64,000 nt of DNA from Squalus acanthias (lineage: Eukaryota): contig CM059426.1 of NCBI GenBank assembly GCA_030390025.1, positions 34,658,001-34,722,000 of the forward strand, in the 5' to 3' direction. The translations under genes were made by a program, and so were the position numbers. Below, piece by piece: positions 2,796 to 64,000 of this stretch. The notes under the pieces are model-generated. The model saw only the letters and a program-made list of their open reading frames with translations, made no database searches and was not told the DNA's origin. The first letter of the stretch is position 1, and every line of letters starts with the position of its first letter.

Positions 2796-3395
2796 TATAA
2801 GAACATAAGAAATAGGAGCAGGAGTAGGCCATTCGGCCCTTCGAGCCTGCTCCACCATTCAATGAGATCATGGCTGATCTTCTGCCTCAACTCCATTCAC
2901 CGGCCCTATCGCCATATCCCTTGATGCCCTTACTAGTCAGAAATCTATCGACTTCTGTTTTAAATATACCCAATGACTGAACCTCCACAGCCCTCTGGGG
3001 TAGAGAATTCCAAAGATTCACCACCCTCTGTGTGAAGAAATTTCTTCTCCTCTCAGTCCTGAATGGCCTACCCTTTATCTTGAGGCTGTGGCCCCTGGTT
3101 CTAGACTCCCCAGCTAAGGGAAACATTCTCCCAGCATCCATCCTATTAAGCCCTGTAATAATTTTGTGTGCTTCAATGAGATCCCCTCTCATTCTTCTGA
3201 ATTCAAGAGAATACAGGCCTAGTTTACTCAATCTCTTCTCATACGACAGTCCTGCCATCCCAGGAATCAATCTCGTGAACCTTCGTTGCACTCCCTCTAT
3301 GGCAAGTATATCCTTCCTTAGGTAAGGAGACCAAAATTGTACACAGTACTCCAGGTGTGGTCTCACCAAAGCCCTATATAATTGGAATAAGACTT
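2796..3395 (-). mobile_element. Young 5'-truncated CR1 LINE
   Basis: ORF 2887-3369(-) VRPHLEYCVQFWSPYLRKDILAIEGVQRRFTRLIPG...RRNFFTQRVVNLWNSLP is the CR1 ORF2 C-terminus, followed by an intact 3' tail. Confidence 0.95.
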
Positions 3396-3455
3396 CATTA
3401 CTGGAGTAAGACTATACTGCAACTCCTCAAACATGCTACGAATATTTGTCTAATG

Positions 3456-3476
3456 CAATATGTCCATGGTGCTGAT
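3456..3476 (-). promoter_or_regulatory. RE1/NRSE (REST-binding) element in ST8SIA3 intron 1
   Basis: Minus strand reads ATCAGCACCATGGACATATTG; the 15-nt core TCAGCACCATGGACA matches the RE1 consensus TTCAGCACCNNGGACAGCGCC, with a degenerate 3' tail. Confidence 0.7.
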
Positions 3477-3501
3477 TTAGAGTGAAGACCCCTTTGCACA
3501 C

Positions 3502-3715
3502 ACAACAACAACTTGTATTTATATATCGCATTTAAGACAAAAATTGTCACAGAGCCAAAGGAAAGATTAGAACAAACGTCCCAAAGCTTGGTCAAGGAGG
3601 TAGGATTTAAGGAGTGTCTTAAAGGAGAAGAGGTTTAGGGGAGAATTCCAGAGCTTGGGGCCTAGACAGTTGAAGGCACAGCTACCAATGGTGGGGCAAG
3701 GAAGTCAGGGATGCA
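3502..3715 (-). mobile_element. L2 LINE 3' end fragment, interrupted by the next CR1 copy
   Basis: ACAACAACAACTTGTATTTATAT tail. CAGTTGAAGGCACAGCTACCAATGGTGGGGCAA matches the L2 copy at 134-165. Confidence 0.75.
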
Positions 3716-4210
3716 GAACATAAGAACATAAGAAATAGGAGCAGGAGTAGGCCATTCAGCCCTTCAAGCCTGCTCCGCCATTCAATGAGATCATGGCTGA
3801 TCTTCTGCCTCAACTCCATTCACCGGCCCAATCGCCATATCCCTTGATGCCTTTACTAGTCAGAAATCTATCGACTTCTGTTTTGAATATACCCAATGAC
3901 TGAGCCTCACAGCCCTCTGGGGTAGAGAATTCCAAAGATTCACCACCCTCTGTGTGAAGAAATTTCTTCTCCTCTCAGTCCTGAATGGCCTACCCTTTAT
4001 CTTGAGGCTGTGGCCCCTGGTTCTAGACTCCCCAGCCAAGGGAAACATTCTCCCAGCATCCACCCTATCAAGCCCTGTAATTATTTTGTGTGCTTCAATG
4101 AGATCCCCTCTCATTCTTCTGAATTCAGGAGAATACAGGCCTAGTTTACTCAATCTCTTCTCATACGACAGTCCCGCCATCCCAGGAATCAATCTCGTGA
4201 ACCTTCGTTG
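3716..4210 (-). mobile_element. Young 5'-truncated CR1 LINE, near-identical to 2796-3290
   Basis: ORF 3860-4192(-) encodes the CR1 ORF2 C-terminus with one frameshift; tail GAACATAAGAACATAAGAAATAGGAGCAGG. Confidence 0.95.
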
Positions 4211-4485
4211 CCAGAATTGCAGCGACCTGAGCCTTACTGCACTCTAAGTAAAAGAGAGAAGATCCAACTAGAGGTAAATATTTTAACAAAGCCAGGAAAA
4301 CAATCCGTAATTTTAAGTAATCAAGTAATTTTAAAATTAACAACGATTAATAGAATAGATTATGAGTTCTACTGGTCATTGGTCAAGAAAAGAAGTGCAG
4401 TAGATAATATTAAATCCATTTTTATTGAGCTAACTAAATTAACGTAACTGCTCTGAGCACCGCGTGTCTCAAAACCCCTTCATAA

Positions 4486-22738: not shown

Positions 22739-23840
22739 ATGAACAACGCGTATAGATGTATAGCCAAAGAGGTATATGGCATGAACCCGGAGATTACAAT
22801 GGACAGCATTGGGAATTTGCATGGTGGAATAAGCCATGAGCAATCCACGGGCGATCTGATGAACAGTCACCAGCGGCAGGCAGTTTCAGCAGCTCATCGG
22901 GAACTGACGACCAGATCTGCAATGGTGTCCAGTATGGCTTCCATTCTGGATGGGACTGGGGACTACCGTCCGGAGCTCTCTATCCCTCTCCATCCGGCCA
23001 TGAGCATGTCCTGCGAGTCTCCACCTGGCATGGGCATGAGCAGCACCTACACCACACTAACGCCACTCCAGCCCCTGCCTCCCATCTCCACCGTCTCGGA
23101 TAAGTTCCACCACCCTCACCATCACCACCACCACCACCATCACCACCACCAGCGGCTGGCGGGCAACGTTAGCGGGAGCTTTACCCTGATGCGGGACGAA
23201 AGGGGCTTGCCTGCTGCCATGAACAATCTCTACAGCCCGTACCACAAGGACATGCCCGGGATGACTCAAAACCTCTCCCCTCTGTCCAGCAACCCTCTGG
23301 GAAACGGCCTGGGCTCCATCCACAACACCCATCAGGGCATCCAGGGCTACGGCTCCAACAGCCACGACAAGATGCTCAGCCCCAACTTCGAAGCTCACAC
23401 GGCTATGCTGGCCAGAGGGGACCAGCACCTGTCTCGGGGTCTTGGAGCCCCGTCGGCGGGCATGATGCCACACTTGAACGGCATGCATCACCACCACCAC
23501 GGTCACTCAAGTCATCATCAATCTCACGGGCCCGTGTTGGCTTCAAGCCGGGATCGGCCTCCCTCCTCCTCGGGCTCGCAGGCTAACAGCTCGGGCCAGC
23601 TGGAAGAGATCAATACCAAAGAAGTAGCACAAAGGATCACGGCGGAACTCAAACGCTACAGCATCCCACAGGCCATCTTCGCTCAGAGGGTGCTGTGCCG
23701 CTCACAGGGAACCCTCTCGGACCTTTTAAGGAACCCCAAACCTTGGAGTAAACTTAAATCGGGACGGGAGACCTTCAGGCGGATGTGGAAATGGCTTCAA
23801 GAGCCTGAGTTCCAGAGAATGTCAGCCTTAAGGCTCGCAG
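22739..23840 (+). CDS. ONECUT2: ONECUT2 coding exon 1 (TP box, poly-His, CUT domain)
   Basis: MNNAYRCIAKEVYGMNPEITMDS (ONECUT2-type N-terminus); TYTTLTPLQPLPPISTVSDKF; His tract; CUT domain EEINTKEVAQRITAELKRYSIPQAIFAQRVLCRSQGTLSDLLRNPKPWSKLKSGRETFRRMWKWLQEPEFQRM; donor GCAG|GTAAGC at 23840/23841; synteny with ST8SIA3. Confidence 0.96.
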
Positions 23841-24871
23841 GTAAGCCAGGGGATAATGCTCGCACGTTGAGATTGTGAAGAGGGAATTGGTAGTGATGGG
23901 GGGGGGGGGGGGGTAAACTCACAATAACGGTGCAAAACAACCAAAAATCATTGCAATTGTTATTTGCTGTGCTCTAATTCATCGACAAGAGAATATTGAA
24001 TAGAAACTGCCTTTCTTTGTGGTTAGATGCACCCGTGCCACTATTGCGGGGAGACCCGGGTATTTTCCTGTTTTTCCCCATTCCACCCACTGCAGAGCTC
24101 CTTCAGGGTTCTCCTTAGTCCAGTGCTCGCACAATAGCTCCATCAGAAGACAATTCAATATTCCCTCAATGAAACGACACACCCACAATCGTAACGTGGA
24201 ACGGCATCAACATCTGATTACCATTCAATTAATGTACCTTAAAAACCCATTTAAGAATGCAGTGTTCAAATGCTTCCCCACCCCCCCCCCCCTGCTTGAT
24301 GACCATCAACAAATTCGCAGTTGCACTATCCAGAATCCTACGTGCTGCCAGCCTGTTTAACCCATGTCAGAATCTGAACTGCTTTTTTTTGTCTCCTTTG
24401 TAGCACAGTAATTCCCTTTACTAACGTTAACTTCAGCCCCCTGCTAGAGATCGGTAAGGGCTAAAATCGGACTATTGTTGTCCGCCCTTGCTCATGCCAG
24501 CTCTGCATTGGACAGAAGCAATTCGACCGATTTCTGTTAAGTCTGCAGCACTCGGTTAGTTCTCGGTTTCTTCATCTACAACGCCGTTATTTTTTTTAAG
24601 CAGAATTCTGCCACCGCTTTTTGTTGTTCTGTTTAGTCCGTGTAATATGTGAAGCAAAGAGGAAACATATAAAATGTTTTACGCTTTTCACAGGGTTGTA
24701 GGGTGCCGAGTGACAAGCCTTGAGCTGTTTTGCGTGTATTTAAACGAATAGGTAAGACTAGTGCAGTGCTATAAGTAAGCGATCGTTTTGTTGTGGTGAA
24801 TCCCAACGATTGAGCACTGAACGAGCTTCGGTGGTTGGCAGTGTGATTGGGAAATCGGAGGAATTGCTTTT

Positions 24872-38270: not shown

Positions 38271-39290
38271 TTTGTGTTTGTCTTCATGGAAGAAGATGCA
38301 AAAAACTTCCCAGAAATAGTGGAGAACCAAGGGTCTAGCGAGAATGAGGAACTGAAAGAAATTAGTATTGGTAAAAAATAATTCCCCTGGACCTGGACCT
38401 GATGGCCTACATCCTAGGGATTTGAAAGAGGTGGCTATAGAGATAGTAGATGCATTGGTTGTCACTTTCCAAAATTCCATAGATTCTAGAACGATTCCTG
38501 CAGATTGGAAGGTAGCAAATGTAACCCCACTATTTAAGAAAGGAGGGAGAGAGAAAATAGGAAACTACAGACCAGTTAGCCTGACATCAGTAGTAGGGAA
38601 AATGCTAGAATCTATTATTAAGGACGTGGTAACAGGGCACTTAGAAAATAATAATAGGATTGGGCAGAGTCAGCATGGATTTGTGAAAGGGAAATCATGT
38701 TTGACGAATCTGTTAGAGTTTTTTGAGGTTGTAACTAGCAGAATAGATAAGGGGGAACCAGTGGATGTGGTGTATTTGGATTATCAGAAGGATATACTTG
38801 CCATAGAGGGAGTGCAACAAAGGCTTACCAGACTGATTCCTGGGATGGGGGGACTGTCCTATGAGGAGAGATATGCCTATATTCTCTAGAGTTTAGAAGA
38901 ATGAGAGGTGATCTCATTGAAACATACAAAATTCTTACAGGGCTTGACAGGGTAGATGCAGGGAGGATGTTTTCCCCTGGCTGGGGAATCTAGAACCAGG
39001 AGTCACAGTCTCAGAAGAAGGGGTCGGCCATTTAGGACTGAGATGAGGAGAGATTTCTTCACTCAGAGGGTGGTGAATCTTTGGAATTCTCTACCCCAGA
39101 GGGCTGTGGAAGCTCAGTCATTGAGTATATTCAAGACAGAGATCGATAGATTTTTTGGATATTAAGGGAATCAAGGGATATGGGGATAGGGAAGGAAAGT
39201 GGAGTTGAGGTAGAAGATCAGCCATGATCTTACTGAATGGCGGAGCAGGCTCGAGGGGCCAAATGGCCTACTCCTGCTCTTTTTCTTACA
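38271..39290 (+). mobile_element. Internally deleted CR1 LINE (its 5' part begins ~37536, before the MITE)
   Basis: ORF 38368-38889 PGPDGLHPR...WKVANVTPLFKKG..NYRPVSLTS...QHGFVKGKSCLTNLLEFF..VDVVYLD is fused directly to the C-terminal KDILAIEGVQ; 3' tail ends ~39290. Confidence 0.92.
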
Positions 39291-39613
39291 TACATACAAG
39301 ATGAAAATAAAATACACAGAGAAGGAACGTGAAGTAATTATTGCACAATTTTATTGGTCAGGTTTTGTTTTAGTGTAGGCGTGTTCTGTAATTAAACGGT
39401 TAGAACACTGCTCAGCAAAATTAACGGTTTGGGTTATTTCCACATTTATTGCCATCAGCTGATTTCCCCCCCCCCCCCCCCGTCCAGTAACTCGAAACCT
39501 CAGGTAAAACAAAGCGATATTTTAAGCAAGATTCGTTATTGTGCAGACGAGGATAAAGTCAGCCCGTTTCTATAAATCCTCAATATTATTATTTTTTTTC
39601 TTTTCCTTCCCAG

Positions 39614-39906
39614 CGTGCAAACGCAAAGAACAAGAACAGAACAAAGAGAAGAGCAATACACCAAAGAAGCCACGGCTAGTTTTCACTGACCTCCAACGCC
39701 GAACTCTTTTCGCCATTTTCAAGGAAAATAAGCGCCCTTCCAAGGAGATGCAGATCACAATCTCGCAACAGCTCGGTCTGGAGTTGACCACCGTCAGTAA
39801 TTTCTTTATGAACGCCCGGAGGCGAAGCTTGGACAAATGGCAGGACGAAGCCATGTCGAGCCCAGGCGCTTCATCGTCGACCTCAAGCACTTGTACCAAA
39901 GCATGA
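39614..39906 (+). CDS. ONECUT2: ONECUT2 coding exon 2 (homeodomain, stop)
   Basis: Acceptor TTTTCCTTCCCAG|CG; (A)CKRKEQE...KKPRLVFTDLQRRTLFAIFKENKRPSKEMQITISQQLGLELTTVSNFFMNARRRS (F48/M50 ONECUT homeodomain)...STCTKA-TGA. Spliced CDS 1102+293=1395 nt, 464 aa. Confidence 0.97.
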
Positions 39907-42900
39907 TTGAGGACAGTGCACCTGAACTGGGCACAACTCAACACCTTTTCTTTCTTTTATTTTTTGCTTTTTGAAGAGGCTGTTCAGTGGTGAGTGCATA
40001 AGCACAATCTTCATCAACACACTTTTTTTTTAAAAAAGGGATGGCACATATTTGAAAGTGTCTGGCATTTAAGATTTCTCCCTAAATTATTTGAGCCCTT
40101 GCTGTAAACTGACAACGAAGCTGAGAGTCTATTTGGTGAATTTTCCGACGTTATCAGGCAGGGCACATCGAGCTATGTTGCTGAGCAATATGTCTAGTGC
40201 TTTGTCTGAAGATAATTGTGACACAATAAGTTCAGTTGTGAGTTGCTTCAGTTGTCAGTTTCTGGCAGCTACACAATGATTTTTGATGCGGTGAAACTGG
40301 CACAGACACTGACAGTAAGTGACGTCCATTTTGAGCGTGTTTTTTTTTTAAAAAAAGGAACCTCAATAGAATTATTGGAGAACATTTGTACAATCATGCT
40401 ATCTCATCACTAACCAGGCTGTTTAAGAATGGGCTGCTAGTGGTGAGTAGGCAAGCACAAAATATCAAAGGCATTTCCGGAGATTTTCAGTCCTGCGTCC
40501 ACGCAACACGATACGAATCTTGAATGATGCTAGTAAACGTGCCCTCACCGCTAGAGCCACCCTTTGGGTGGAGCTGCTAGTGGTGGGAATGCAAGCACAA
40601 CCTTCAAGCACATTCCTCCCAATCACCAAATCCGCGACATTCTGTAATGTCCAATCATATGGTCTGTTTTGTTTTTGTTTCCAGAAGATATCAGGAGCAT
40701 TCAGTCGTGAAGGCAGCTGTTTGCTGCAGGAAGAGTGCATATTGTTTGTCTTATTAGTTGTAGATTACTATGCATTCATACACTTAGATTCTATTCTTGG
40801 GCAACACTGGTTTAGTACTGCAAACGCACTGAGTAGCCCGTGTAAAGGGGGCTGCCCATGGTGAGTGCAGAAGCACAAACATTAAATAGTTTTATTTTTC
40901 CTAAAACTAGGCATCAATACACCTTCTTCCTACATGTGCACATTCACCACTGAACGGGCCCTTTAAGAACACCATTGACGTGTTCAAAGGCAAGCCAAAG
41001 GCTTTAAAGACTCTCGTGAAGACACTTGATACTTTTTTTTCTATTTATTATTAAATCGAAACCAAAGAAACTTTTTTCTGCACCTAATTGTTCTGCAACA
41101 AACTTGTAAACAAAAGAAGCACGTCAGGAAACAACGTACGCACTGTGTTTCAATGGATGTCTTAGTCGTTTTGGGAAGCAGAGTTACGAAAGGGTTAACA
41201 AGCAAAGTAGCAACAACAAGGGAGCAATGCCACGGATCATTGCTGCTTCATTTGACGACACTCTCCGCCTCTTAAAGTTGAATATTGTCTTTAACGTGTG
41301 CCTATGCAGTTTTTGAGAAACGTTGTACAGAACAACAGAAAACCTCTTCCGCTTCAACCAAAGTCAGCTTCACAGAGACATGGATCTGTTTTGTAGTTTT
41401 TATGCATTACAGTTGAGTGCTGTTGGCACTATTGGCCTGTCTTTCAATGTTCGTCTTATTGAGAGAGGGAAATGCCCACTCAGTTTCACAATTTCCTCCT
41501 AATTAGCAATTCCAATGGAACAGGATACCAACAAATGGATCCAAATGGCTCCAAGCACAAGATGTTAGGGTGCAGATTAAACACCTCTACCAAAGATAGC
41601 AACCCATTCCCATAGCTCGGTAAAGGTAACTAAATATGGGAGTGTTTGCAAACTGTATGTTGCATTACATTAGTTACTAAGCATTACTGTGGTGTCTGAT
41701 TTTAGCCATATGCATTTAACAAGCATTCAACATAGCCAATGGTTCTTACTCAAGTCTCAAGTTGGATAATTTAAGTGAACTTTAACCTTTCATTAATAAT
41801 TTTGATGATTAGTCTATCATAAATTAATGCAGTTCATACAATATTAATATATTCCAAATTATTTTATTTGTATTGTATATCTAGTTTAAAATGTATAAAC
41901 TTTTTATTTTGAAATGTTGACATGATAATTATTTATTTTAAAAGGTCAGATTCAATTGATCCATAGATTTTAAAAAGTTCACTCTTCATCTTAAGCACAA
42001 AAGAGTCCATTGGTTATGTTTGTTGGTGAATTTAGTAAATGGTTACAGTCGCTAGTTTATCATTTACACTTTAACCTAAGTATCCTATGAGTTTCTTATT
42101 CATTGTGTGTCGATAGACGTTTAGCTCAGCATCTTGTGCATGGAGTCCCTGCGCACGTCCAAGACGAGTTCAACTTTCAAGAACATCAGGAAATCTACGA
42201 TAATTTTACAAAAAGAAGACAGTGCAGTATTGGTATACTGTAGTCCAATAGCTTTACCCAGGAATGTGGAAGCTTTTATCCTTAAACAAAGCTATATCCA
42301 AAGAAACCAAACCAATTGGACCAGCAAACTGAAGGTTGACCCTCACAGAGAGAATGACAGTACTTTCCCTGTGTGGCTCTTATTGTTTTGTATTAACTCA
42401 GATGTTAGAAATATGCCGTATTGTGGTAACAAGTTCAGACAGTTGACAGTGATATTTTCATTGCTAGTCACAATACCCATATGCCATGTAAGTGATTTAA
42501 TTAACAAAAGTTGATTTCTAAACAAGTTTGTAATTTTTAAAGTGCTTTTGACTAGTTTAGAAATCAAAAAGCTATATTAGCTTTATTATTATTATTTGTA
42601 TTATTTTGGGTATTTATTGTGAACTATATATTTAAACGGTGATTTTTCTCTTATTTATCAAATACTATAAATGTATTTAAAATGAAAGATGCAGTGCTTC
42701 AAATGGCCTCTAGTTATCACATTGTCTGCTTATTTTATAAAGCAGAAGAAGTTAATTCCTTTAACTTTGATTGATTTTCTTTTGTATTTTATTAGAACAA
42801 ATACAAATTACCGCTGGGAGTAAAATTGCAAGTGCATAAATATACATCTAACACAAGTCCAATTCTGCATCCTGTAAATTCATAGAAGAGAATTGGAGAT

Positions 42901-45900
42901 TTAGATTTTCTAAATTGTACTAATAGGCATCCTGTAATAGTTGAACATTATGCTTTCTGTGCAGAAACTACCTGAGCCAATATCTCAACATGTTTTCATT
43001 ATCATTATCTATTTTTGGATTTTAGCACCTTTAAGCACTGCATCTTTTATTCTCAATTTTCAATGCCAAAGAATTATCCCACTATAAGCACTGAAAGATA
43101 TCCCTTCAGTCTTATTAGTAATAACATGGACAAGCAATGATTTTATATGGAACAATACAGCATGTACTGATGGGAAAGTGAATACACAACAGGAAATACT
43201 TTAATGATCTTTCCACCATTGTTTAGCCCTGTGTCCAAATGGCTTTAGACAGTTTCTTTCGATTGTGAAGAAGTCTTTAGCGTTAGTGACAAGAGACAGA
43301 AAAAAAACCCTGAACTCGCTGCTTCCAGGTATGAACTATGTGTAAAAGCTCTTTCTACTTCTAGTGAGAACCAAAGAGGCTACCTCACTGAATTTTTCCA
43401 TTTGTAATTTTAATCGCGTCGATGATACCAAAGATACCAAAGATTTCTTTCTCTGCACGGTCTGCGTTTTGCTCCTGCTCATGTATAGACTGTCTCCTAA
43501 ATACAGCTGCAACTCAGATACCCCAAAGATCTAAATGGTGGTCTGCACTCATTCTAAATGTGTGTTTTTTCTGTGCTGTAAAAAGACAATTTCCTTATTA
43601 GAATCCATCATCAAGAGACCAAATGTACTATGTTCAGTAATTTTTGTACTTGTGGTCAACTATTTTAAAAAAAAGCTAATGTCACCAGCATTTCGCTGTA
43701 TTGTGTTTATTGTGATAAATATAGATCTAAAATATGCAGCAGTTTTGATTGGAGTATATTTAAAATAATTAATATTTCACTATATGGAGATGCTGTTTTA
43801 CAGAATTCTGTCCTTTCTAAACTAAAATGAGTAAAATCTACTAACAGGACCCAGGAAACACATAATTAAAGAGAATAATTGTTACCGCAATATAGGGGGT
43901 GTTAATATTCTCATATATTAGCAAGGTGAGTTGGTAAACATGGCAGATTCAGTTGCTATGGTGCCACTCAGATTGTTTCATCTAGCACTGTCTAACGCAC
44001 AGCTCTTTTCACTCTTCTAAATGCAAACATCGCCCTGTCTAAAGTTAGTTCAGTCATTATAATATGGGGCCTGATTTATAGTTAATTAGTACAATGTCAA
44101 TTTAAATCCTAAAAAATCTGAGATTGGTTGACCAGCAATTATTTAGGTCCTGTTAAAGGTCTTTAGATTGAAGAATACAAATTCTTGAAAAAAAATCTAG
44201 ATGAGAAAACAATAATACTCAGTGAATAAATCTCAAATTTCAGCAGGAAAAAAACCCCTGAAATGAATATTAAAAATTTCATATAGTGAACCAAATACCA
44301 CTGCCTAAAGTGAATCTTCCAGCAGTTCCTTATGATCTAATAGGGAGCTTTGAGTTAATTAAAGCACTTGTGCTTTGCTTGCTATTTTAAATAGCACTCT
44401 TCTCCCTATACTTATATAAAACCTGCTGGATCAATAATTACAGTGGTACTAATAGGTAATTCAAGTTTACTTCATAACAAGCTACGCAAGGTTTTTTTTA
44501 GTGTAATAAAATTTCTTTCAATCTATTCGTATAAAATGTACTCGCGCAAACTTTAGTTAATCAGTTTATTTTTGCAGCCCAGGGGGAGAAAAAAAAACTC
44601 TGCCATGTAATGTTACCAAAGTCATGACATTTTTACTGATATTTAGAGAAGAAGGCTGGAAAGATTAATTTGCATTCAGTTGAATTTATATGTACTCAGA
44701 TTATGTCAAACCAAACCAGTGCCTAGATTGTCTGATGTTTTAGGTCTTTGGTAGCTGTAATATGCCCAAATCATATCCCATTTATGAATGCACAGAAAAA
44801 ATAAATAAATACACATCCTGAATCAGTGGCCACCATTACCAAAATACCTGTACTTAAAAAAAAACCTAAAATCTAGATGCACGCTTTAGTTGCAAAGTGT
44901 GATAAACCACGGGACGAGTGCCTTGCTTGAACCAAAGCGGTGTTTCTTTCCAGTTTCTAGACCTCTGTGCATTTTTTTATTCCTGTGAATACCTCAGCTT
45001 CGAAAAGGCCACCAATTTTTTATTGCTGGTGAGCCGCTATACTGTGGTGCTTTGCAATGCAACCATGCAAAGAACTAAACAAAGATACCAAAGTTTTCTC
45101 TCTATCTCAATCTCTATCTTCTCTTTCTCTTAAAGATACCAAAGCTTTAAAAAAAAAGAATTGATTGAGTAGGTTGGCAGCGCAGACCGTGCATTCCTTA
45201 CCGAATTTTCTCAGATATACCTCATAGATAATAGTGTCTAGGGTGATGTTATTATAGCATATGTAATAAATTATTCACTCGTTTTTTGGTAACTGTAACT
45301 ATGATATAAAAAAAAGCTTTATACGTTTTAAGTTGTGATTTTTGTAATAGGTGACAGGTGCGCTTATGGAAGGATTGTAAATGTTTCATGGAATTTGGGG
45401 AAGTTGCAGAACGAGCCCAAAGTTTACAGTTTTCATATTCTGAAGAAACAATCCGTTGTTTTTTTTCCTTTGTGTGTGTGTATGTGTGTTTAAAATGCGT
45501 TTATTTCCACATTGTCCTACATAGACTTATTGACTAATTGTTATGTGTTAAAAGTGTAGTGTTAAAATTAGCAACTGCCAAACAGTGCTATAATTTTATG
45601 CATGAGGTTGTAAAAATTTAGCAAAGGTGATGCATTGTGATTATCGAGAGTAATATTTTTTAATTTAAGAAAATAGATTTTTTTTTCTTTTTTAAAATAG
45701 ATTTTATTTATGCATGAGAGCCTGTTATTTGTTAGACATTGTGGAACAGTTGTGTATATATTGGACTGTGAAAGCAAACGCAGTTGAATTGAATACACTG
45801 GAAAAGTTGGCGCACAGGGATTGGGATGGGTTGATGTGTCAATTTAAAAACAAATCAAAAATAGGACTTAGCGTAAACAAAAAGTCAAATCCTGCACACA

Positions 45901-46651
45901 ACTAATAGGATCCTTCAAACCACACTACTGCCACTTACAATGGCTTTCAACAGTTTGACATTACTATAGTGAGAGAAAGCATTTTCCAGATCAAGAAAAC
46001 ACCCAAACGGAATTAATTCAGTTATAAGGTAGAATTTCTGATGTGTGGATGTTTATAGCTAGAGCTCTTGGTCGATCTGATCAAGAGAGAGGTGACTTTG
46101 TTTTGTTATTTATTTGCCAAAGATGAGGATGGGGTACATAAGTTTGGACCAGAGGAGAGACAGTCAGCAGATGTTTGTTCATATGTATGTTTTTTTCTCT
46201 TCCAGAAAGCTATTAGTGTTCTTCCATAGGACAAAAGAGTGACTCAGTGTATAAAAAATACATTTCTGATACTTTTGTTTTTCAAATTTAACTTGGGACA
46301 AGATTTTGGTTTCAAATCTCACTAAATGCTTTTAAACCAAAAGGTTTGGTTGTTTTCCTTATAATTTTAAAGGTATGAAGAACATAATAGGAGATGTGAG
46401 TTGATGCAAAGGTTGTTTGTGTATTAATCAATACCGAGTGAAAGGGAGTTAATTATTATTGACTAATGCATGCCAGGATTAGTTTTTTGCATTTTGCTTA
46501 AATCCAATTCTACAGGGCTTCAGTAAACAATATGTGACAGTTGTTGAGAATGCTGGTGTTCTATTGCTCTAACACTTACAAGAATGGCTGATTACAACGC
46601 ATTCAAAGGCTGGGGTGATGGCTATTTTTCAACCTCTCAGGGAAACACATT

Positions 46652-46836
46652 GGGGGCAGCTTTAATCTAACTCGCCCATAGGGAAACTGGCGGGATCGGG
46701 TGCAATGCTAGTTTTACACCCAGCCCAATTTTACTCTCCATTGTAGTCAATGGAGTAATATTGGGCAGAGTGTGAACTGGTGTTCCATCCAATCCGGTGG
46801 GTTTCCCACCTTATGGGATAGATTAAAATTAATCCC
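46652..46836. mobile_element. Degenerate palindromic MITE
   Basis: Imperfect fold-back centred on CTCCATTG-TAGT-CAATGGAG; ends TTTAATCTA / TAGATTAAA. Confidence 0.65.
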
Positions 46837-47754
46837 ATTGTGTCCCTACTAGGTATGGTTTTCTGTGCCTTGATCACTAATATGCTCACTTATTGTACTT
46901 ATTTTTCCTCTCTTGTCAGTTTAAGACACATGTAATTCCCTTCACTGTTTTCCCAGTTTCCTTCCTTCCTCGAAAGGTGCTGACTCATGTTGTGGCACAG
47001 TTGCCCTCCAGGATGCCCAAATGCCATTCTTCATGAATGAGTCTAGATAGTGAGGCAGACTAATAGACTGTGCCTATGATACTGTACCTGGCCAGGAGGA
47101 GAGTATCTTTTGGTACTAAACATAAATTTGCTATGACTGGTTCTTCTAATACCTACACATGTGTCAAGATGGTTTGCATGTTTTCTTCATCCTTCATAGC
47201 ATCTTGCCTGTGTTACTGTTTTCTGTTGTTCTTGTATCATGCTTTCTACTTCAATTTCTGACATCTGTTCTACCTATCTGATAAAATCACTAAAACAGCT
47301 GTGGGATAGGGCTACATGTTGCAGTCCGGTTCTGTCTTTAATGGGACAGTGAGAGTAGTGCCACAGACCATTTAAGATTCATGAGACAAGTCTAATGGGG
47401 GTAGCACGATACTTAGCTGAGCACCCAGGGAATTCTGTTTCTCCATCACAACAATGTGGGATAAGGAGTATGATTCTCATGATACACTGAACCTTTTGTG
47501 CATGATCAGTGGAATGAAATAAAACAAAACCTTCTTTAGCAATTTTACAAGTGCCATTTTGCAATGAAACACATAATTAAAGCAAATTGTCCAATTCGTG
47601 ATGTGAAGAGACCACTTTTGAATTGCAGTTGTTATGATTTGTTGCAATATGTACTTTAATGCCAAATTATAATATTAAAAATATTTTCACTCGCTGACTC
47701 ACCCAAATAAACAGAACTGTATTTTCTAAAGTGAGCATTAAGCATTATCCTGCT

Positions 47755-48110
47755 GCTCTCCTGGTGGCTCAGTGAATAAACCTGGTATAGGAAGATACTG
47801 GCCAGGAAGATCCCAGTTCAATCTCTGGTCTGTGCTGAATTGGCTGATCTCAGCTGGGGGAGCAGTAGAGAGTGCCAAAATGAGCACCACATCAGCCAGT
47901 TCCCACTCTTAATTGCAGCCTAGTAACCCCTGCTGGAAAGCACATGTGTGTGGATGTCAGGTGAAGGCAGAATCAGACTTGGCTACAATGCATCCCCATG
48001 ATCATGTAGCATACCAACATGAACTGCCTAAGAATAGCCACTTGTGTGAGGTACCAGGGGGAAGCTAGGAGCCGTTGAACTGTTTCGCAGGGTGAATCAG
48101 CCTTCAGGAG
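47755..48110 (+). mobile_element. Old tRNA-headed SINE-like repeat (unclassified)
   Basis: GGTGGCTCAGTG head, then TCTGTGCTGA(A/G)TT(A/G)GCTG.TCTCAGCTG. Related copies at ~35010-35300 (+), ~58940-59290 (+), ~46950-47070 (-) and ~53465-53600 (-). Confidence 0.55.
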
Positions 48111-48329
48111 TGGAGGGGAGGGGAGGGGAGAAAAGTGGCGGTTTGTTTCCTCCTAAAACAGAAGTTTCCATAAAATCCTCAGTTCTGGTTAGACAGATCA
48201 CACAGAAAATCTAAAACCAGTGACCGCCTCTCAGGTTAAAGCAAAACAAAAGGAGGAAAAGTTAGTTGAGTCTAATAAACAAAACTGGCTAAGTTTTCTG
48301 ATGAGACCAGACTGGGGGTTGTAAATAAA

Positions 48330-49270
48330 ATGGAACAATAACAAAGGGCTTTGGATATATTAAGAAATTGACCTGACAAGTAGTAGATGTTGTTTAATAT
48401 GTATAAATGCAAAGTGATGAGACTGAGGAAGGGGAATACGGCGTAGGGCTATATGCTAAATGGTATTATTCTAGGCAATGCAGGAGAGGGATCCGGGGCT
48501 ACTTGCGGTTAGCTACCTAAAACCATCGGCATAGTGTGTGGCAACAGTAAAGAAAGTAATCAAAACTTTAGGTTATAGAACCAGAGGGATAGAGCATAAG
48601 TCTTAGGAAGTGATAACAAATGTGTACAAAGCACGTAACTAACTACATCTGGAATAGTTTGTACAATTCTAGTTACCATTCTTCATTGGAGAGGGTGCAG
48701 CGAAGGGGAATTGATACCTTGGATTAGGTAACCTGAGTTTTAAGGAGAGGCTACAGAAACTGGAGACCTTATTGAGGTGTTCAACATTCTAAAGACTATC
48801 GAGCGTTGAAATGACTATAGGTGATATTAGCAGATGAATGCTTAGTACGTTAATATAATCTTCTCAGTGCTATTTTAACAGAGGCGTTAACATGTTTTAA
48901 ACAGGTTAACATATGCATTAAAATGGTGGACAGGAGAATGTCATGGGAGCATGTTAAATCGTTGTCCATTAATATCACTAACAGTAATTGGGTAAGTTGA
49001 ATCCTCATGATATGTTTGACATAACCACAAACACGACAGCAAAGGTGGCATGAACTCAAGCTCAGGGTAAAGAGACAGTTTAGATTGAACTACTTTACCC
49101 AGATGGTGGTGAATATGTGGAACAGACTGCCCAGGGACAATGGAGGAAGATAGTGTTGTAAATTGAAGAAGAAACTGGTTTTATGTGACAGAGAAAGTGA
49201 TTGAAGGGTATGAGAGATAGAGTAGTATATGATATTTTGGGGACTGGCTAGATGGACCATAATGGACCAT
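48330..49270 (+). mobile_element. Old degenerate CR1-like LINE
   Basis: Decayed motifs TTTAATATGTATAAATGCAAAGTGATG, CATCTGGAATAGTTTGTACAATTCT and TACTTTACCCAGATGGTGGTGAATATGTGGAACAGACTGCC. Confidence 0.65.
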
Positions 49271-49281
49271 AACTTAGTCAA

Positions 49282-49410
49282 AAGCAAAATACTGTGGATG
49301 CTGGAAATCTGATATAAAAACAGAAAATGCTGGAAATACTCAGCAGGTCAGGCAGCGTCTGTGGAGAGAGAAACAGAGTTAACATTTCAGGTCGATGACC
49401 CTTTGTCAGC
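49282..49410 (-). mobile_element. Penelope-like repeat fragment (hammerhead core decayed)
   Basis: Reverse complement of 60265-60395; core reads CTGACAAAGGGTCATCGACCTGAAATGTT (CpG-type transitions). Confidence 0.75.
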
Positions 49411-52400
49411 TTTGTTTCTTAGACTCAGCTAACTTTTCCTCCTTTTGTTTTACTTTACCCTGAGTAGAGGTCACTTGTTTTAGATATTCTGTGTAATATT
49501 AGCAGTCCTGCACATTACAATGTTCCTATGATACCTGGTTCGCACTGTAACATGATTGACAGGCTTTGCTGTGAGCAGCACAGATACATGATATAGAGGA
49601 ATACACTAAATTCAATTCAACAGAATATATTTTTTTATATATCAAAAACTGATTTAAGTTATGACAGAGGTAAAGACTTTGAAAACTGGAAACCTGAAGT
49701 GTGAACAGAAAATGCTGAAAATGATGAAACATTACAACTAAAATGATATCCTGTCTTTCTGCTTCAAATGCTGATCCATTTGCTGTGTATTTCCCACATT
49801 TTCTGTTTTTATTTAAGTAATTTAAGGTTTATTGAGCAGCTGTTTATTTTTGATGGGCCATTGACCACAATAAAACTAATTCTGGAGTCATAGTTCTATT
49901 AATACAATAGGATTCCTTAAAATGGTACAGTCTCTAGCTCCACAATAGTACCATGTATGGATATCACCCTCATAACTATGACTACAGAATACAGCCAGAG
50001 GAAAAGAGATGCATTGGGTTAAGAATACCTTCAAACCAGTTATACTAAAATAGATATTTTCTTTCTAAATTTTAAATAAAACAGTCCCAGCTCTAATTAT
50101 AATGGCTTAGCTTTAAGTAAAACGGTATAATGTTTCTCAGGGGGTCAGTCCGGTAGCTTCGGACAAGCAGTTTGCCTCGAAGGTCAAATAGGTACAAATT
50201 GGCACTGGCATTCTTATTACGTCTGCAGAAAATTCACTGTAAAAACCTAAAGGGTATAGACTTGACTAGCAGGAGCCAGATTTTCACAAGGGTCACTGCT
50301 ACCTCTAAAGCAGATGTTAGTGACTGACAGTAGGCAAGGAAAATGATTGCAAGACTTTCAGTGTCACAAATGATGATGGAATAATGTCCGAGTCATAACC
50401 AGTCCTTAAGAACAAGCATTTCTGTACTGAACAGTGTCCCTTTGAGGACTATTTTTCACCTTTCAAAAAGCTTGTGTCTTCGTTCATTTTTAATATCTCC
50501 AAAGACAGATATTTTGTAAACATCTAATGGTGAATGTTATACAGTAGAAATATACGAATGAGCAGAACCAAAGAGCATTTTTAAAGCGTGTAGTGTTCCT
50601 CAGATAAACATTTATTTACTTTGCATATTTCTTATTTGGAAATATTATTGCAATCCTCAGAGTGGTAAAAATTGGACGTTTTTATTAATAATTAATATTT
50701 AAATAAATTTATGTAGAGATAAAAGAAGAAAAACTTTGGAATTTCTGAAAATCTGAATAGGAATGCTGGAAATGTACGGCAGCTTCATCAGCATCTGACA
50801 GGTTAGCATTAGAGGGGTATCCTGTTCATCAAACTGGAAACGGGAAGAGAAGCAACTCCCTTTGTTAGAGTAAACAAATAAAATTGAGAGGGAAGAACAA
50901 CAGGGAAAAGTTGACAGTCAGGTGTGTAACTAGTATCACAAAGGGACAGTAAATGGGCTCAATAACTGTGAACAAATATTTAAAAAATCTGGAAAAAGGT
51001 GAAAAAGCATTGGATGTTCCAAAAAGACCATACAAACTCATTGGGGGGAGTTTTCACAGGAAACAACGGGTGGGTTGGAGGCGGGGGCGAAGTGAAAGTT
51101 GGAAAAATCATTGTGTGCTTCTTAGGGATAGTAATTAGCATAACTGACCCTTGACCTTTGTCCATTCTCTTGTCTCCTCTTTGTTTACTCCTATAGAGGA
51201 GCTCCCCTATCTTCTAGCTTCCAATTCTGAGAAGGATCTATAGCTGAAATGCTAACTTAGCTTTTTTTTCTTTTCAAATACTACAAAGACTTGCCCTGTA
51301 CTTGAAGTATTTTTCACAATATAATTAAAGTTACTTGCGAATGATAGAACAGGACTAAGATGTAGATTATTTACATTGTTTTCATCGTCAGTCAGTGTAA
51401 GTTTACAAACTAGCTTATCATATTTCTGAAAAGTTTTGAAAACCTAGATCATAACAACCTTGTGAAAATAGGCTGCCAACCGCAGGTCACTGTGGACCTC
51501 AGCATCCATCTCAGAAGACGCATTAATTTGGTACTAAACTTTAACTTGTTTAAATTCTATGAGTAATATTAAATCTAAAAATAAGTTCAACCTAAGAAAT
51601 GGCAGGTTATGTTGAAAAGTTAAATTAACAAGTGTTTTGCCAAATCTTTTGGGACTTACAGTAAATTTAGTCTTGTGACATCAAAAGCCGTGGTTATTGA
51701 CACTGTTACCCTTTGATGTCACAATTCTCATTTCTGGACATGAATCATGAATTCTTGTTATATCCCATAATGACATTTTAGTTTCATACATTCCCAGGTT
51801 CTAATCCAGTTCTCTTCAAGCTCATTGCTGTTATTATCTGATGTTATGAAATATCGAAAATCATCTGAAATATATTAAAAATACAATTACACATTTAATT
51901 GGTGCTAAAACGTTTTGAAATTCTGTTAGGTGATGGGTCGTCACTGATGTTTTGATGGAGTCTGTAATGTTGTAATTCAGTCCATTATCACCCCCTGGTG
52001 AGCAAATTTTTAAAGGCTGTGTTTATGTCTACACAATGGGAAGGTGCGGCAACAGTTTTCCTGAATTTAATTAATTTCAAAAACAAAAGAGAACCTTTAG
52101 CTTTATGTCACAGATTTGGCATCCTATTTGCTTTTGTGGTTGCATTGTTTTCTTTGATAAAGGAGCATTTCTTCATCAAGACTTCTTAGACACTAACAGC
52201 ATTGCAATAGAAATTTAGAAGCAACTCTCAAGTATAATTCAGCAGTAGGATACTTTCTGTGATATCTACTATATTTCCAAAAAAAATAAACATAATTTTC
52301 AAAGCTGGCCAAGCCTGCTATTCAGGGATTTGGATGTGCTGAGTGAGAACTTGTGTAGTGACATGATGTCCGGTTTATTAGGCCAAGTACTCACTAAGGA

Positions 52401-62667: not shown

Positions 62668-62681
62668 TGGTGACCCCGACG
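62668..62681 (+). promoter_or_regulatory. Primer binding site, tRNA-Trp
   Basis: TGGTGACCCCGACG is complementary to the 3' end of vertebrate tRNA-Trp (...CGUCGGGGUCACCA). Confidence 0.85.
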
Positions 62682-62706
62682 CTCAGAACGTATTCCGAGC
62701 ACTGCA

Positions 62707-64000
62707 ATGGCGGACACGAACGCAGTTTCCGTGAAACTGCTGGAGTTTTGGGAAAACCAGCCCGAAGTCTGGTTCCTTCAAGCTGAGTCACGTTACTGGC
62801 TGCAAAACATCACCACAGATGGGACGAAGTACGACTATCTCGGCACATCACTCGGTAGCTCCACAGTTACGAAGGTCTGGACAGCGCTGCAGAACCCACC
62901 AGGGGAGGGCAAGTATGCACATCTTAAGGCCGCGCTCCTTAAAAAATTTACAGCCTCGGCATACCAGCGAAACTGCCACCTCCTCGACCTTCCAGGCCTC
63001 GGTGATGACTCACCGTCAGACCTCCTCTCCCACATGCTCTCCCTCACCGACGAGAGCCCACCCGATCCCTCTTCCGCACGCTGTTCATCCGCCAGCTACC
63101 TCTCAGCATCCGCCCAGCGATCGTGGCGTCCGGCCTCACGGACCTGGAAGCCCTGGCCGATGAGGCCGACAGACTGCTGTCCGCTCACTCCAGCCGCGAC
63201 GTCACTCCGGACCTGGCAGCCATTGCCTGGGCGTGCCCCTCACCGGCCACCATGCGGCCACAAGGCCCAGCCACCGGGCTCACGGGGCCTTCGCGCCCCA
63301 CTAACCCGGGCCACTGTTACTACCACGCACGGTTCGGCGCCAGGGCACAACGGTGCACACCTCCCTGCTCTTTCAAGTCCGCCCCCGTACCAGCCCCCGT
63401 GATGGCCGTGGGCCACGCAGGCTCCCTGCTGTACGTCACGGATGAGAAAACCGGCCGCCGGTTCCTGTGCGACACTGGAGCTCAGCACAGCATCATCCCG
63501 GCCTCCTCCCTCGACATCCAAAAGGGCAAATGAGGACCGGCGCTGGCTGCTGCTAACAGCTCGGACATTCGGATGTACGGCACCTGCACAGTCACCCTCG
63601 ACCTCGCTGGTCGCCACTACCGATGGGAGTTCATCACTGCCAAGGTGCTCTCCCCTCTCATCGGCACAGATTTCCTGTGCGCCCACGGCCTACTGGTAGA
63701 CATCCCTCGACACCGCCTCGTGGACATGAAAACCATGTCCCCCATCCTGGGCACCATGGCCCCCCGTCAACCCGCCGACATGGCGTCACAGTGCCACGCC
63801 TGGGCCACGGATGACTACTCGGCACTCCTGGCCGAATTCCCGGCCCTTACCAATCCGACCTTCTCCGCGGAGACTGCCAAACACGGGGTGGAACACTTCA
63901 TCCCCACCACAGGCCCCCCAGTGTACGCCCACGCCCGCAGGCTGGACCCGGCCAAACTGGAGATCGCGCGGACTGAGTTTGCCACCATGGAACAGCTCGG
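62707..64000 (+). pseudogene. Gag-protease-(RT start) polyprotein of a CsRN1-like Ty3/Gypsy element; disrupted and truncated by the window end
   Basis: Gag FWENQPEVWFLQAE; frameshift near 63067-63070; CHCC knuckle CYYHARFGARAQRCTPPC; protease FLCDTGAQHS and IGTDFL; in-frame TGA at 63531-63533; then HGVEHFIPTTGPPVYAHARRLDPAKLEIARTEFATMEQLG leading into RT. Confidence 0.9.

Follow-up and report, generated by a model that had tools for sequence, protein, structure and literature searches.

The onecut2 locus and its array of miR-9 sites

The window, the whole 64,000-nucleotide stretch of Squalus acanthias DNA analysed here, contains a onecut gene on the plus strand. Its first coding exon (22739–23878, +) is an open frame with the CUT domain, and its last coding exon (39526–39906, +) is an open frame with a homeodomain, the stop codon ending at 39906. 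The homeodomain displays the ONECUT2-type residues of PDB 8t0f (DLQ, LFAIF, KEMQ and LTTV). By bit score the exon is slightly nearer to HNF6 (142.8) than to ONECUT2 (137.6), because of the linker. Read from these exons, the gene is onecut2, which bears out the name given in the initial annotation. An ST8SIA3-like gene lies upstream of it in the window, an arrangement that we take to be the synteny of ST8SIA3 with ONECUT2. Retroelement-like frame fragments locate at 2887–4243, 38356–38889 and 62674–63699; judging by their motifs, they are presumably LINE-like and LTR gag/protease-like.

Four onecut homeodomain exons are present in the genome. The paralog on C23 has HNF6/ONECUT1-type residues (onecut1), and the paralog on C19 is presumably onecut3-like, as we assume from its residues. 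The fourth exon (L007, G000:C24:51340403-51340696, minus strand) is more divergent, with 66% identity; the 10 kb downstream of it holds only four miR-9 8mers and neither arm of the helix described below.

The focal site, 29 letters at 43501–43529 on the plus strand, locates in the predicted onecut2 3' UTR, 3617 nt (3.6 kb) downstream of the stop codon. The first AATAAA past the stop codon is at 44225, downstream of the focal site, and three ATTAAA precede the site. UTR blocks conserved among the paralogs flank it on both sides, and the human ONECUT2 UTR is given as 14,575 nt long (PMC10356556). The focal site is thus predicted, and likely, to be part of the onecut2 mRNA.

As the query in every script we used the 23-nt miR-9-5p of this genome, which is identical in the 5p arms of three mir-9 loci (L001–L003, Rfam RF00237). 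The stretch from 39907 to 51000 holds 18 seed matches; of these, the 7-8mers number 16 and span 41061–50574 (+). The 8mers start at 41061, 41589, 43370, 43427, 43436 and 50567, the 7mer-m8 sites at 41357, 44615, 44931, 45087 and 45138, and the 7mer-A1 sites at 42298, 43066, 43523, 46117 and 50499, all on the plus strand. The 7mer-m8 word occurs 11 times past the stop codon against 1.1 expected (about tenfold) and once on the minus strand, and it is enriched 6–9-fold in the onecut1 and onecut3-like paralogs. This enrichment therefore argues that the miR-9 site array is selected.

Within blocks common to onecut2, onecut1 and the onecut3-like paralog lie the 8mer that starts at 43370, the tandem pair at 43427 and 43436, and the site at 44931. 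The tandem 8mers (43427–43443, +), whose seeds are 2 nt apart, also occur in onecut1, are a single site in C19, and match the arrangement of human ONECUT2 sites 7 and 8. Each of these ancient sites has at most five contiguous 3' pairs. A shared word locates about 10 nt past the first ancient 8mer (UTR position 3474 in onecut2, 3433 in C23 and 1191 in C19); we take it to be a let-7-type seed.

Several further features of the array are listed here as observations in their own right. Four 7mer-m8 or 8mer sites (in 43427–43443, 45083–45093 and 45134–45144) are preceded by an identical set of three letters, potentially able to pair with miR-9 nt 10–12 if one miRNA base is bulged. The 7mer-m8 word of miR-9-3p is also enriched, with 6 occurrences against 1.5 expected in onecut2 (42250, 42579, 45143, 45315, 46658 and 50109) and 5 against 1.2 in onecut1, compared with 1 against 1.1 in C19; the antisense control gives 0, 0 and 2. 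Sites for miR-9-5p and miR-9-3p overlap at 45138–45150.

The array resembles that described for vertebrate ONECUT genes (PMC10914762; PMC10356556; bioRxiv 10.64898/2026.10.02.755877) in gene, miRNA and tandem 8mers 2 nt apart, with 16 7-8mers here and 13–14 conserved in human and mouse. It differs in that the available portions of those papers describe no 3' pairing at any site.

Pairing of miR-9-5p with the focal site

The pairing proposed in the initial annotation (nt 2–7 plus A1, possibly nt 9–13, a 7-nt bulge and nt 14–21) is reproduced with the genome's own miR-9-5p. The seed match is a 7mer-A1 (43523–43529, +), in which 43523–43528 pair with nt 7–2 and an A at 43529 stands opposite nt 1, the canonical pairing of a miRNA target site. 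Nt 8 is indeed mismatched, but not by a single mismatch: two C's (43521–43522, +) face it, forming a 1x2 internal loop. Upstream, 43516–43520 (+) can pair with nt 13–9, 43509–43515 (+) forms the 7-nt target bulge, and 43501–43508 (+) is complementary to nt 21–14 over 8 bp, all Watson-Crick in a pair-by-pair check. The offset is +8, so that 14 target nt bridge the seed and the 3' helix if the centre is unpaired.

The 3' helix has an energy of -11.3 to -12.0 kcal/mol, and the whole duplex, at -20.3 kcal/mol, is the lowest among the sites past the stop codon. For two seed matches in the coding exon, at 22764 and 23616, the duplex energies are -20.4 and -19.2 kcal/mol, on par with the focal site. 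Fold prediction gives an opening cost of 0.5–0.6 kcal/mol for the focal seed, which is predicted to be accessible, and of 2.2–4.2 kcal/mol for the 3' block at 43501–43508, which is predicted to be partly paired inside the UTR.

The focal site was not found in the onecut1 or onecut3-like paralog. It belongs to a stretch (about 43470–44890) that has no blastn match in three paralog regions of 20, 20 and 10 kb. By this comparison, the focal site looks onecut2-specific or younger. Since the ancient sites have so few 3' pairs and the focal stretch is unmatched in the paralogs, the ancestral regulation looks seed-based.

Of 24 public sequencing runs listed, 20 contain part of 42900–44100, with no RNA run recorded among them, and four runs compared with 43450–43660 placed no contig there, a null result that may be false and weighs neither way. 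In the papers searched, we found no human or mouse sequence of the focal site. Among five published primers aligned to the UTR, one (mouse forward) beat all 100 shuffles, at 43341–43369. The mouse mutagenesis primer has no significant alignment to the UTR, which says nothing about the focal site.

The 3' helix compared with chance

None of the other seed sites, 18 in all with the focal one, has a 3' helix as long or as strong as that of the focal site. In 2000 shuffles of the miRNA 3' part, a 3' block of at least 8 bp appeared at any of the 18 sites in 2.75% (p = 0.028), and a Markov estimate for the 8-bp block gives p = 0.034. The focal 3' energy yields p = 0.026–0.047 by shuffling (2.55% of 2000). 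These tests are post hoc, concern one gene and one miRNA, and leave the complementarity of nt 9–13 uncounted. We consider the 3' helix modestly above chance, with p of about 0.03–0.05 chosen after the fact, which is suggestive and not exceptional.

It is accordingly a possibility of some weight, though not the one that we prefer, that the 8-nt 3' match arose by chance, and that the focal site, one of many, is a 7mer-A1 acting through its seed alone. With a penalty on the offset, the focal trigger score is matched in 55.7% of shuffled miRNAs, with p = 0.42–0.56; this score is an ungapped version of that of Lin et al., which penalises offsets above 3, and it thus penalises the +8 offset here. 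Across the genome, the pattern of 8+7 letters with a 4–18 nt gap is found 89 times; three of these are the mir-9 loci, and some are copies of one repeat. The 86 other places compare with 46 and 45 occurrences of permuted controls, and the pattern alone is therefore not rare. Permuted controls were used instead of a reversed pattern (11 matches), which was dropped because the reversed word contains CpG. The lack of a counterpart in the paralogs also fits a chance match. Against it, no other 8-nt block in the 11 kb UTR is complementary to miR-9 nt 11–23 and the focal one adjoins a seed, nt 9–13 are complementary as well and lie outside the chance tests, and onecut2 is a top miR-9 target.

Comparison with triggers of miRNA degradation

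The initial annotation saw in the focal site the architecture of a trigger of target-directed miRNA degradation (TDMD), and suggested that the onecut2 mRNA might in turn degrade miR-9. Under such a mechanism, the mRNA would recruit ZSWIM8 to AGO-miR-9 and lower miR-9-5p in cells with high onecut2 and low miR-9, such as early-born neurons or liver, forming a double-negative loop. We judge this improbable at the focal site, on the grounds set out below.

The architecture agrees in part with that of validated triggers. Like Cyrano/miR-7, Nrep/miR-29b, m169/miR-27 and Kah/miR-9b, the focal site is likely to lie in a 3' UTR, and it combines a seed match with at least six contiguous 3' pairs in a comparable energy range (PMC10899785; bioRxiv 10.1101/2024.12.11.627053). 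Of 13 validated triggers, 12 have at least six such pairs, with energies of -9.6 to -17.1 kcal/mol (PMC10899785); the eight focal pairs at -11.3 to -12.0 kcal/mol fall inside this range, with the energies coming from different folding programs. The Drosophila trigger Kah:miR-9b, for a miR-9-family member, has its seed exposed and its 3' site structured, as is predicted for the focal site (bioRxiv 10.1101/2024.12.11.627053).

The seed and the centre of the site agree less well. Validated triggers have mostly 8mer seeds and 3–11 unpaired nt, the counting of loops being unstated in the available text (PMC10899785), and the focal seed, a canonical 7mer-A1, is weaker than most of them. A 7mer-A1 mutant of Cyrano was 75% less active, but for HSUR1 a 6mer suffices (PMC10899785). 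The focal centre either leaves 14 target nt unpaired, a longer bridge than any listed, or pairs nt 9–13 and bulges at 13/14; the TDMD conformation is described as not accommodating pairs at the centre (PMC10899785). The energy ratio of 0.69, obtained by RNAduplex and not by the program of TDMDfinder, is below the cut-offs of 0.7 (predicted, here borderline) and 0.8 (high confidence) in the available TDMDfinder criteria. The trigger architecture thus holds for the length and energy of the 3' helix, and it does not hold for the usual 8mer type of seed, the bridge or the ratio.

Published ZSWIM8 data also weigh against degradation. In the available Table S1 of PMC10620050, miR-9-5p is absent from the sensitive and secondarily sensitive lists for 12 mouse tissues, MEFs and iNeurons, and its sole row is in the expression sheet. 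We computed knockout/heterozygote ratios from this sheet, taking the second column as the knockout, a column order inferred from miR-7a-5p and miR-154-3p. At E18.5, miR-9-5p has ratios of 0.97 (forebrain), 0.88 (hindbrain) and 0.96 (eye), and it falls within 0.76–1.06 in 10 of the 12 tissues; for miR-7a-5p, brain and eye give 2.9–6.8. The 5p/3p ratio of miR-9 changes by only 1.15-fold, 1.05-fold and 0.87-fold in forebrain, hindbrain and eye. Skin shows a threefold rise in both arms. Liver gives the one result in the direction of TDMD, a rise from 4.3 to 11.6 CPM (2.7-fold) at the detection limit, where the control is under the paper's 5-CPM threshold and there is no 3p value. In the same dataset, miR-9-5p makes up 10–15% of brain miRNA reads, which by our reckoning of stoichiometry would be a heavy load for a transcription-factor mRNA.

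The available main text of Jones et al. (PMC10499020) does not name miR-9-5p. Ten miRNAs are reported to rise in ZSWIM8-knockout brain (bioRxiv 10.1101/2024.01.27.577548), a result set aside here because the available text does not list them. ONECUT2 has no match in the supplements searched of PMC8653786 and PMC13369745 (CLASH chimeras), including the 14 supplement files searched of the CLASH trigger screen, a search that excluded files 1, 13 and 14. The ZSWIM8 data come from bulk mouse tissue at E18.5 and Onecut factors mark neurons born at about e9.5 (bioRxiv 10.64898/2026.10.02.755877), so an early or cell-restricted effect, which bulk tissue could mask, is compatible with them. Moreover, the mouse data bear on the focal site only if the mouse has the site. 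Taken together, the case for TDMD at the focal site is weak: the proposal that onecut2 degrades miR-9 is left unsupported by the geometry of the site, by paralogs without the site, and by a mouse miR-9-5p that is not called ZSWIM8-sensitive.

A human prediction for the same miRNA and gene favours the trigger reading. In Table S1 of TDMDfinder (PMC8887481), ONECUT2 takes one of six human miR-9-5p rows, and there is no mouse miR-9-5p row. The ONECUT2 entry (row 2028, hsa-miR-9-5p_ONECUT2_2033_2040) is an 8mer with seven contiguous 3' pairs, a bulge of 2, a ratio of 0.74 and a phyloP of 7.14 on the 3' block, and it is classed as 'Predicted', not as high-confidence. Like the focal site, it combines a seed with 7–8 contiguous 3' pairs, and two of the four terminal miRNA bases are paired. 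The human site, at UTR position 2033, has an 8mer seed and bulges by 2 nt; the focal site, at UTR position 3617, has a 7mer-A1 seed and bulges by 7 nt, and the two are probably different sites. By position and geometry, a candidate counterpart of the human site is the 7mer-A1 with its seed at 42298 (42286–42304, +; UTR position 2392), the second-best 3'-paired site of the array, which has an offset of -2 and pairs nt 13–17.

The initial annotation named no earlier description of the focal site. In the literature searched, we found neither a tested vertebrate miR-9 trigger nor the focal site itself. The general idea, on the other hand, is partly in print already, both as the human TDMD prediction, which probably concerns another site, and as a model of the ONECUT2 UTR as a structured miR-9 sponge (PMC10356556). 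The sponge resembles the trigger proposal in that the mRNA acts back on miR-9 and UTR structure matters; it differs in invoking sequestration rather than decay, and the available text names no specific site or conserved helix.

A predicted long-range helix encloses the focal site

Folding of the UTR predicts a long-range helix whose 5' arm (43454–43480, +) is conserved in onecut1, onecut2 and onecut3-like and whose 3' arm locates at 45167–45193 (+). Thirteen perfect pairs join 43454–43466 with 45181–45193 at an ensemble P of 0.96, and in onecut2 the helix extends to about 25 pairs with a span of 1740 nt. It starts about 10 nt past the tandem miR-9 8mers and encloses the focal site. Corresponding helices are predicted in onecut1 (L008, 3846–3872 with 4186–4213, span 368 nt, P 0.94) and in the onecut3-like paralog (L010, 1584–1600 with 3501–3517, span 1930 nt, P 0.92).

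The onecut1 helix keeps 13 of the 13 core pairs, with compensatory double changes at pair 8 (U-A to C-G) and pair 11 (G-C to U-G), and that of C19 keeps 11 of the 13, two being broken. The partner lies 6.7 SD (onecut2) and 5.7 SD (onecut1) below the mean of UTR windows. In C19 a 30-nt scan favoured other partners, the core being among the best few of 9803 windows. An Rfam search over 39900–52000 returned only two sub-threshold chance matches, and we found no description of a onecut long-range helix in the literature searched, a search that did not extend to genome-wide structure catalogues. Considered alone, such a helix in the onecut mRNAs is, as a model, quite probable; the comparison draws on a small sample, the three paralogs of a single genome, and a fold that spans 2 kb is only predicted.

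Additional helices are predicted just 3' of the focal seed, where 43534–43576 (+) pairs with 44790–44837 at P 0.94–0.97. A predicted outer helix of 43426–43437 with 45234–45245 (P 0.81) would run across the tandem miR-9 8mers, with the potential to gate them; it is absent at P above 0.4 from the onecut1 fold. On the minus strand, 44745–44759 reads as a miR-9 8mer site with a 7-bp 3' helix, at -18.3 kcal/mol.

The structure raises a further explanation, in which the 3' block serves pairing within the UTR and the match to miR-9 is secondary. Its partner would be 44848–44856, or else 44745–44759 (+), a sense stretch equal to miR-9-5p nt 1–7 plus nt 13–20 that is complementary to the focal site and would mask it as a built-in mimic. 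We hold this to be unlikely, slightly more so than a trigger. The focal site does form part of the 5' strand in a long multi-helix stem given by the fold prediction, and the best partner for the whole site in the 11 kb UTR is 44722–44780, at -21 to -22 kcal/mol. However, another window reaches -21.7, so that this partner, like the mimic, is no better than the best chance match. In addition, the helix of 43498–43506 with 44848–44856 has a P of just 0.45, and the mimic pairing would cross the helices with P 0.94–0.97.

Discussion

The sequence itself shows the pairing, the gene, the array of 16 sites and that the paralogs lack the site. As to function, we lean, by a little, toward the focal site being an ordinary repressive miR-9-5p site, whose 3' pairing likely strengthens a weak seed and is not a decay trigger. 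In this mechanism, AGO-miR-9 would begin its pairing at the seed, which is predicted to be exposed, after which nt 14–21 would pair across the loop, with 2–4 kcal/mol paid to open the local structure. Together with 15 other strong sites, the focal site would add to the repression of onecut2, and it may contribute as rising miR-9 shuts off onecut2 after early neurogenesis. The site would do so from within a onecut2-only stretch closed by a predicted helix common to the three main onecut paralogs.

The repressive reading is likely on several grounds. In reporters and cells, miR-9 acts on the ONECUT2 3' UTR to repress the gene (PMC10914762; PMC10913399; bioRxiv 10.64898/2026.10.02.755877), the array is enriched, the site has the best 3' helix of the 18, and its seed is predicted to be open. 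Against it, the benefit of 3' pairing at an offset of +8 may be small or nil, and the helix may be chance, as the p-values are post hoc. Full-length ONECUT2 mRNA is also reported to be resilient to miR-9, while short reporter fragments are not (PMC10356556).

We further considered a joint model, in which a helix predating the onecut1/2/3 duplications organises the miR-9 cluster and the enclosed focal site acts as a ZSWIM8 trigger in early-born neurons or liver. This combination is very unlikely, the least probable of the proposals considered here. If it were true, the miR-9 timer of neurogenesis would gain a double-negative switch overlooked by bulk late-embryo knockouts.

Should the focal site contribute no more than 3' pairing, it is a further detail of the known control of ONECUT2 by miR-9. 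As a trigger, it would have no vertebrate miR-9 precedent in the literature searched, and the clock that miR-9 provides for neuronal birth order would gain feedback. The predicted conserved long-range helix is the newer and more promising lead. Lying beside the tandem miR-9 sites, it would offer a testable structural basis for the resistance of full-length ONECUT2 mRNA to miR-9 described in the available text of PMC10356556.
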